Shown here piece by piece: positions 17,401 through 19,442 of a stretch of DNA of 64,000 nt (positions are counted from its first letter, which is position 1; each line of letters opens with the position of its first letter). This DNA comes from Eledone cirrhosa. Taxonomy: Eukaryota. The stretch spans positions 39,556,001-39,620,000 of the forward strand of contig OZ024757.1 in the NCBI GenBank assembly GCA_964016885.1, written 5' to 3'. A model generated the notes under the pieces. It worked only from the letters and a program-made list of their open reading frames with translations. It had not been told where the DNA came from and searched no databases. The position numbers and the translations under genes are program-made.

Positions 17401-18533
17401 CAGTCACCATTCCCATCTTGTCTCTACAAAATAATACGAGATGTGTATGTAGTAAGAAAATGTGGATCTCCTAACATTCTCCATAAATTGGTATTAACGC
17501 TTTCACTTTGTCGTGTTATTTAGCTAGCATATATCTAGGTGCATAGCTTAGTGGTTAGAGAACTGAATTCACAAATGTGAGATTGTGAGTTCGAATTCGC
17601 AACGTGTCAATCGAAGAAATCATTCGATATAGAAGATCGAGGTCGATAGGAAATAAATGAAACTCTGTTCCTACAGAAGATCATTTCATTTGACTCTCAC
17701 AATTTCGACATCTTAAAGAATCTTGTTAACACCATTCTGGATTTCTATATTCTATGGCTGCCCCATCGCTAATTGCCAGAGTTATATGTTAATAACTCTG
17801 GTTCAAAAATAATTCCCTTGGGACATATTCCTTGCTGAACTGATGGATAATGAGGGAATTCACATCATCACACCCACCGGAATTTCTTATCAGTCAACAA
17901 ACTTTAAAATGAACAGAAACACTACAGTTTTAAAGTGTTTGTGAAAGATATTTTGAAACAATTGTTAGGACTTCCTGTCAAACTACATCATTAGATACAT
18001 TAGTAGAAGCCTGGCAAACCGCCATTTGCAATAAATAAGAACGCATAACATTTAAATTTCAGATACTGATGTTGAATGGTTCAAACGAATGAAACAATTT
18101 GCTTCTTGGCAAATGATTCAGTTTGTAGTATCTCAATGGATTAGAATGGTTTGATATCCATGATGAAGATTTCTTGAAATAAATTACTTGAGGATGATAT
18201 GTCGTTACGTGAAGATGACATGTCGCAGTTGGGATTTACGTTTAATCAATATTGTGATTAATTCTCATAAGAACAAGACGTTCATTAATCCTAGTTCATA
18301 ATTCAAGTCACTCTATGATCAAAGATTGTCAGAAAAGAGTAGTACCACCTCGTTAAATTCCGAAAAACAACACAAACACAAACGCAGTATATATATATAT
18401 ATATATATATATAGGAAGGTAAATATATTGTCTTTATAGCGTTGAAAAATAGACAACTGATGACGTTCTTGCTTTCTTCTTATTCTTATTTTCAAGGCTA
18501 CCTTAACTACCAATTACACAGCTAGTCCTATTC

Positions 18534-18606
<73 letters not shown>

Positions 18607-18609
<3 letters not shown>

Positions 18610-18991
18610 AAAAAGTATGACCCGACGGCAGAGCTCAAGCCGTTTCGACGGCTATTTATGGACTAAATTAGAATTTTTAGCCTGGTGAATAAATAGTCGA
18701 ACTTTTCAAGGGGGTACTTCCTTATATGGGAAGATTGTAGTTGTCAAGAGGATCGGTTAAATTTGTTGTAAACACAAATTAGTCTATCATGGCATTTGGT
18801 GGGAGGTAGGGGTGGCTGAACTTGCCTGTAGAACAATAGGGGAGTGAGTGGAGCGGTCACGCGTTGAAAGTGATATGTATACAGCAGATTAATCCGCATA
18901 TATCCATACATACGTTTTCCTATTTCCCACTCTAAGTATTGAGTACTCTGGTGCGTTATGGTCCATCTGGTTCCTTACCACAATTACTTTG

Positions 18992-18993
<2 letters not shown>
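18607..18993 (-). mobile_element. Longest family C copy, with a complete variant HHR and an inverted tail
   Basis: Extends beyond the axis at which the other copies fold back. It sits between an inverted pair of a different repeat (~18495-18537 and ~19075-19120). Confidence 0.7.
18620..18715 (-). ncRNA. Variant hammerhead ribozyme, U3-A8 core (family C)
   Basis: Reverse complement: accccc-TTGAAAA-gttcgactatttat...ataaatagccgtc-GAAAC-ggc-ttgagctct-gcc-GTC-gggt. Confidence 0.7.
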
Positions 18994-19078
<85 letters not shown>

Positions 19079-19442
19079 GAATAGGACTAGCTGTGTAGTT
19101 GGTAGTTAAGGTAACCTTGCATAAAAAAAGATGTTCGTAAAATAATAATCCCAATATTCTTGAGTATGTGTATTATAGGGAAATTAAAATGCAATATTTG
19201 TTCGTATATATATCTTAACAATACATGAAATTGATTTGAAAATAAAAAAACATGAAACAAAGAACTGAACTATATTTACACGGAATCCAATTTCTAATGG
19301 TTTACATAGTAAACATTAATGAGGAGTCCAAGAATTGAACGAATTATTTTCCAAGTATTTCACTTCTTCTCGTACTTATTGTGGTTGTTGATGGTTTGTT
19401 TTCCACATATATACAGATATAAATACATATATATATATTATA

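Follow-up and report, generated by a model that had tools for sequence, protein, structure and literature searches.

Hammerhead cores with U3-A8 in place of the canonical C3-G8 are already in print. In bacterial and phage hammerheads, natural U3-A8 covariation was reported in 2011 together with tolerance of a weak stem II (Perreault et al., PMC3088659), and for Penelope elements about 1,300 U3-A8 matches were described in Schistosoma mansoni (Cervera & de la Pena 2014, PMC4209133), so the U3-A8 core, which an earlier note on the present DNA had called non-canonical, is not new. The Cercyon element of S. mansoni has type I hammerheads in Penelope terminal repeats, with U3-A8, thousands of mostly solo copies, and extra nucleotides near position 10.1, G10.1-C11.1 being kept (PMC4209133). 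Hydra-clade Penelope-like elements carry the motif near their 3' end, several of them with an internal loop after G10.1 (Craig et al. 2021, PMC8557442). In Poseidon, from Anolis carolinensis, two reverse-transcription starts give rise to a tail, and insertions span the uncut hammerhead (PMC11167929).

These features recur in a minus-strand motif found in 64,000 nucleotides of the Eledone cirrhosa genome (the window), where the parent is also of the Hydra-clade type. There are differences as well. Cercyon as described lacks helix III, whereas here a stem III of 5 bp closes a palindromic loop of 9 nt; stem II is about 55 nt long, and C·A and U·G subfamilies are found (compare PMC4209133). In File S2 of Craig et al. 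(PMC8557442), each of the 26 Hydra and Repbase rows has CUGANGA, a short stem II, and a 3-4 bp stem III whose loop has 1-3 bases, unlike the present motif. The hammerheads of Perreault et al. (PMC3088659) are not tied to one retrotransposon lineage and, as presented there, form no C·A/U·G series. The Poseidon hammerhead has the canonical C3-G8, overlaps the start codon and was tested in vitro (PMC11167929).

The motif and its insertion in the window

Read along the minus strand, the order is CCCCC-TTGAAAA-G...C-GAAA-CGGC-(9-nt loop)-GCCG-TC-GGG. In hammerhead numbering, U3 is at 18709, A8 at 18704, G12 at 18646, C17 at 18624 and G1.1 at 18623. The type I core positions U4 G5 A6 N7, A9, G12 A13 A14, A15.1-U16.1 and H17 are all present, and the fold of ten subfamily copies has three stems with stem I open (Table 1). 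A relaxed hammerhead descriptor has this site as its sole match in the window, compared with 0.07 matches per shuffled window (30 shuffles), which bears out the hammerhead with a TTGAAAA core that the earlier note had proposed for this strand. A strict descriptor, with 6 bp of stem II close to the core, does not match the window copy because of a rare G>A in its stem II (18697, common to 2 of 40 sister copies), which also carries a private G>T (18658). The 3' strand of stem I is GGGG in 32 of 40 sister copies and is shortened to GGG here.

As the earlier note had foreseen, searches for CUGANGA miss the motif. Rfam misses it too: no hammerhead was found over 18600-18800 at E<=10, and no hammerhead family is among the matches listed for the whole window (150 of 375), which are mostly false microRNA matches to (TA)n and (CA)n. 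The silence of Rfam and the failure of the strict descriptor on the window copy would suit a chance match to hammerhead words. This explanation is hardly credible, given the rarity of matches in shuffled windows and the placement of the motif in a Penelope pLTR, and it is already contradicted by the canonical CUGANGA found in the same register in older relatives.

Table 1. Features of the hammerhead motif and of its surroundings in the window
Feature	Position	Strand	Basis or remark
Type I hammerhead motif, whole	18621..18714	-	descriptor match and unconstrained fold of ten subfamily copies
Stem I, 5' strand (C run)	18710..18714	-	fold and descriptor
5' core U3 U4 G5 A6 N7 A8 A9 (UUGAAAA)	18703..18709	-	descriptor; N7 varies with the subfamily (A, C, G or T)
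Stem II: G10.1-C11.1, small internal loop, 9-bp helix, distal hairpin	18647..18702	-	fold and descriptor
Initiator-like word TYAGTY in distal stem II (putative)	18661..18666	-	word conservation and 5'-end cluster
3' core G12 A13 A14 A15.1	18643..18646	-	descriptor; GAAA kept in 90 of the 100 first listed copies when left free
Stem III: 5 bp, 9-nt loop with palindrome GAGCUC	18625..18643	-	fold
Predicted cleavage site GUC^G	18623..18624	-	hammerhead numbering
Stem I, 3' strand (GGG in the window copy)	18621..18623	-	descriptor
5'-truncated 3' end (pLTR) of Penelope-like element	18608..18890	-	ends 19 nt past the cleavage site
Inverted second arm with long "tail" (+5..+97)	18909..18993	+	head to head, with a filler of about 18 nt between the arms
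(TA)n target, right of the insertion on the minus strand	18538..18607	.	sequence
(TA)n target, other side	18994..19074	.	sequence
Older (D-type) decayed full motif copy with TTGATAA	52346..52460	-	arm search and sequence

Relative to the cleavage site, the window arm extends from -268 to +19. In the whole window the family has 20 arms at 12 sites: 9 young-subfamily sites, mostly arm pairs set head to head, and 3 older copies, in agreement with the roughly nine copies of the 3' part counted in the earlier note. The possibility that the 5' half of the motif is a decayed inverted arm was ruled out, as thousands of copies have the same 5' half. A perfect 23-nt inverted repeat (18515-18537 and 19075-19097; about 45 nt with mismatches) flanks both (TA)n runs, and the Penelope copy seems to have gone into the central (TA)n of a different, palindromic element. 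At 52073-52313, Rfam matches to "Plastid-psbJ-2", below the gathering score, correspond to a fold-back copy of the hammerhead-bearing family. (TA)n runs are very numerous in the window, which also contains 200 N bases.

The parent Penelope-like element

Genome-wide counts refer to a 3.0-Gb genome. The 261 bases around the motif are found at 96-97% in at least 40 other places (40 of 2,048 candidates scored). The pattern TTGANAAG-N40-70-GAAACGGC has 6,031 matches, compared with 57 for the reversed control. There are about 6,300 full motifs and 43,564 exact 3' halves, and every one of these halves spans an intact GUC^G site.

At locus L031, a broken ORF is flanked by two copies that are 98% alike and 3.1 kb apart. 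Natural ORFs of 710 aa (L192, minus strand, 1773-3902) and 695 aa (L193, 1157-3241) were found in related copies, both of the youngest U3-A8 subfamily. They have RWR, DKT and YRDD, a CxCx5C motif (CNCPDRSIC) and a C-terminal YIGLT...CNLC domain, and so present the single ORF of a Penelope-like element, with RWK-like, DKT and YxDD motifs, the CxCx5C linker and a C-terminal domain of GIY-YIG type. This divergent RT-endonuclease ORF gave no match in Pfam at E<=1 and none in a PDB sequence search; its look-alikes in the protein atlas have GIY-YIG, RVT_1 or HTH_animal families on part of their members. The pLTRs, the tandem and inverted 5'-truncated copies, the optional tail and the (TA)n target are also those of Penelope-like elements. 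RWK-like and DKT motifs, CxCx5C, a C-terminal endonuclease and (TA)n insertion are given as marks of Hydra-clade Penelope-like elements (Craig et al., PMC8557442). Judged by its ORF and target sequences, the parent is probably a member of this clade; it inserts in (TA)n and has the type I motif in its terminal repeat, and the origin from a Penelope-like element supposed in the earlier note is supported.

A Naiad parent, which would explain the "missing" hammerheads of Naiads, was ruled out: the endonuclease is C-terminal and not N-terminal, and the motif is DKT and not DKA. The family is also not a non-LTR retrozyme, with non-coding short tandem repeats and a hammerhead in each; the tandems seen repeat every 3.5 kb, and its short copies are fold-backs without the 5' core. 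At C1:91.476-91.487 Mb (L234-L237) and C1:437.200-437.211 Mb, four units of the youngest subfamily follow one another head to tail, repeating about every 3.54 kb.

Other repeats with hammerhead-like words were noticed. A second family combines a canonical CTGA(T/A)GAG core with GCGAAACAGC and a long stem II rich in A and T (e.g. L064, L067, L069 and L075). It accounts for most of the 163 matches of one genome search and is likely another Penelope hammerhead. Further (TA)n-flanked fold-back families were seen at L014 (about 2100-2160), in the fold-backs of L050 and L061 and at L031 (1715-2145), one with CTGATGAGG...TGAAAT and one with TGAAACAG...CTGT. Their presence suggests that several Penelope families behave alike.

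Core constraint and the 3-8 pair

By hand-made rules, 160 of 168 fetched copies were sorted into subfamilies. In a 48-row alignment, none of 12 core columns differs between the 10 subfamilies, compared with 38 of 61 free columns (p=5e-5), an invariance that is partly circular, since the patterns used to fetch many of the loci themselves prescribe core bases. Separate searches therefore left one half of the core free at a time, and the 100 first listed copies of each were inspected by eye. With the 5' core free, changes at U4, G5, A6 or A9 occurred in 5 copies; with GAAA free, changes occurred in 10. All were scattered single changes. Older relatives have the canonical CUGANGA. TTGANAA is kept in the major subfamilies, N7 being A, C, G or T by subfamily, so the conservation in other full copies on which the earlier note depended is found.

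Four states of the 3-8 pair are present. The window copy and most others have a Watson-Crick U-A, and about 73 of the 100 first listed copies have an intact U3-A8 core (by eye). Among 6,342 copies taken with any core, 1,321 have C3·A8, 45 have U3·G8 and 8 have C3-G8. Subfamilies A3 and B1 commonly have C3·A8, the older subfamily C has U3·G8, and the old D3 has U-A. C-G is found in D1, which also has some U·G, and in two very old copies of E, and real C3-G8 masters are limited to these old D1 and E groups. The C3-G8 copies in young subfamilies were considered as covariation and rejected, being scattered single changes of C·A copies (8 compared with 1,321); the U·G copies in D3 and B are likewise mostly single changes. 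C·A insertions have coding parts of their own: 3 of 6 that were fetched have pieces of RT ORF of 318-550 aa, and the ORFs of two that were measured diverge by 4% from each other and by 7-10% from other subfamilies.

After masking of positions 3 and 8, a tree of 127 rows (quick method, midpoint root on E; 8 unclassified rows and 33 of 41 subfamily-A rows were left out) gives a ladder from A2 and A (U-A) through A3 and B1 (C·A) to B2-B4 (U-A), with SH-aLRT of 85-98; the deeper branching order of C and D is weakly supported (SH-aLRT 81-88). A separate tree left out 14 rows with a truncated upstream part. Differences within subfamilies, which are biased by the choice of rows, are 0.14-0.16 for D, 0.09-0.10 for C, A3 and B1, 0.06-0.07 for A and A2 and 0.03 for B2-B4. 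Subfamily A has one extra C before UUGA compared with the others and may therefore have regained U3 by insertion, of which the masked tree gives no sign.

As far as the copies compared can tell, then, the 3-8 pair drifts among pyrimidine-purine combinations without strict compensation, and the claim of the earlier note that U3-A8 is the compensatory alternative to C3-G8 is not sustained in that strict form. Single mismatches at 3-8 are generally known to cripple hammerhead cleavage. The changes C3G and G8C are also reported to do so (PMC11167929). Since mismatched pairs stand in sister subfamilies that spread, the ribozyme is predicted to cut slowly. A literature search, mostly outside subscription journals, found no paper on natural C3·A8 or U3·G8 or on G8A/C3U hammerheads, and supplements may list such variants.

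Folding, copy ends and a possible mechanism

Stem II covaries. Its double changes are G-C to A-U, U-A to G-C and U-A to A-U, and 90% of cells are paired, a value reached in 0 of 500 shuffles and compared with 29-48% in slid controls. These double changes go back to a few inherited events instead of having arisen independently many times, and there is hardly any variation in stems I and III. With one copy per subfamily (10 hand-picked rows), RNAalifold obtained the three-way fold without constraints, and on the 48-row alignment of decayed copies this fold was not recovered.

The earlier note had deduced from stem III that the motif could cleave as a monomer. The 5-bp hairpin can indeed form, at -6.5 kcal/mol each. 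The step to a monomer stands less well, for the GAGCUC palindrome is kept in the loop in all subfamilies, and the intermolecular duplex predicted there has -26.9 compared with 2 x -6.5 kcal/mol. A competing hairpin, GCCGU-CGAA-ACGGC, consists of the 3' strand of stem II and the 5' strand of stem III; it wins in 5 of 12 copies folded, and the three-way fold is the lowest in energy in 4 of 12. Monomer cleavage may thus be possible, but the loop palindrome and the competing hairpin are predicted not to favour it. It is distinctly unlikely that, in line with the view of the earlier note, U3-A8 makes up fully for C3-G8 and the hammerhead cuts efficiently as a monomer. Such a ribozyme would agree with the typical sister copy L004, which folds unconstrained into a three-way junction with stem III paired at 0.83-0.98, with the large share of intact U3-A8 cores, and with the reported monomer cleavage of a fungal Penelope hammerhead that has a long helix III (PMC4209133). 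It is opposed by the palindrome, by C3·A8 in one copy in five and U3·G8 in subfamily C, and by stem II, which has a single pair (G10.1-C11.1) adjoining the core. The window copy itself does not support it either: with its private changes, its core is predicted to misfold, G12 and A13 being mostly paired (unpaired 0.23 and 0.26).

Copy ends were counted in an unbiased sample of 264 kb from one chromosome region (the window and the adjoining 200 kb), with 49 arms. The cleavage site is spanned by 44 of these, and none starts within 3 nt of it; among search-picked loci, 3 of 266 arms start there. The 5' ends of 25 of the 49 arms lie at -45..-34, inside stem II. The 3' ends cluster at +19/+23 (21 arms) and +97 (17 arms). 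Among 30 of 391 ORF-proximal copies, examined by eye, the motif is complete upstream in 16; the start lies at -45..-35 in 3, near -25 in 2 and at the cleavage site in 1 (L248), and the other 8 start further downstream or are rearranged.

The word TYAGTY is present in 155 of 168 copies, with variable neighbouring columns, and coincides with the cluster of 5' ends. We take it to resemble the animal initiator consensus. On these grounds, and because an internal promoter with an initiator is described for Drosophila Penelope (PMC2377424), we infer that transcription may start at A 18664, which is at -41 relative to the cleavage site. For this promoter step only, a serious competitor, which we nevertheless consider the less probable, is that reverse transcriptase stalls on stem II. 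The 5' ends do lie at the top of the stem II helix. However, the stop point is the same for arms begun at +19 or at +97, few arms stop at the base of the helix (4 of 49 at -28/-27), and the D-type stretch is predicted to be unpaired, yet D-type copies end at -39..-43. Among ORF-proximal copies that reach the top of stem II, 3 end there and 16 continue, as partial stalling would also allow.

We favour, with a probability of about 0.6, a terminal-repeat hammerhead of a Hydra-clade element that would be slow and assisted by dimers or protein, its 3-8 pair drifting between U-A, U·G and C·A from one master to the next, the window copy being a truncated member whose core is predicted to misfold. Reverse transcription would start downstream of the cleavage site, at a distance of 19 or 97 nt, so that the template would be uncut or re-ligated there and a slow core would be tolerated or favoured. 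If cutting were fast, the start sites would be severed from the ORF, and a weak core would be favoured. Transcription would begin at the initiator-like word inside stem II; the whole ribozyme would then form mainly at the downstream repeat, the 3' end of the element, and short RNAs from this start may have produced the excess of 3'-half fold-back copies. In the anole Penelope system, ribozyme mutants are reported to have no effect on in vitro insertion, and cleavage needed protein (PMC11167929). Cleavage followed by circularisation, a route proposed in PMC4209133, would also leave the site intact, and the full upstream motifs of ORF-proximal copies (16 of 30) and the 3.5-kb tandem arrays fit it.

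Two other readings should be weighed against the slow, assisted hammerhead. In the first, possible but doubtful, the masters would have walked the 3-8 pair from C-G through U·G, U-A and C·A back to U-A because the ribozyme was tuned to be slow; the initiator in stem II would restrict the ribozyme to the 3' end, and the promoter-bearing 3' half would spread by itself as tens of thousands of fold-backs. In the second, which we regard as unlikely, the motif no longer cuts and is a relic kept as folded RNA or DNA, for binding of the RT-endonuclease, as a mark for the start of reverse transcription or as an internal promoter. C3·A8, with at least 1,321 copies, was carried on from one subfamily into the next, copy ends do not pile up at the cleavage site, and Naiad elements are described as spreading without canonical hammerheads (PMC8557442), all of which a relic would accommodate. 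It would not account for U4, G5, A6 and A9, which lie single-stranded upstream of the putative start and are fixed while N7 varies, the pattern of catalytic constraint; and the youngest subfamilies have returned to U3-A8.

With the U3-A8 core alone already published, what deserves attention in the slow, assisted hammerhead is the drift through mismatched states and the possible start inside stem II. Descriptors limited to CUGANGA and a short stem II undercount Penelope hammerheads. The family is a dated natural series in which one core pair was retained, exchanged or disrupted and the other core positions stayed fixed, and this series bears on what hammerheads do in Penelope-like elements: whether cleavage is needed, needed slow, or dispensable.
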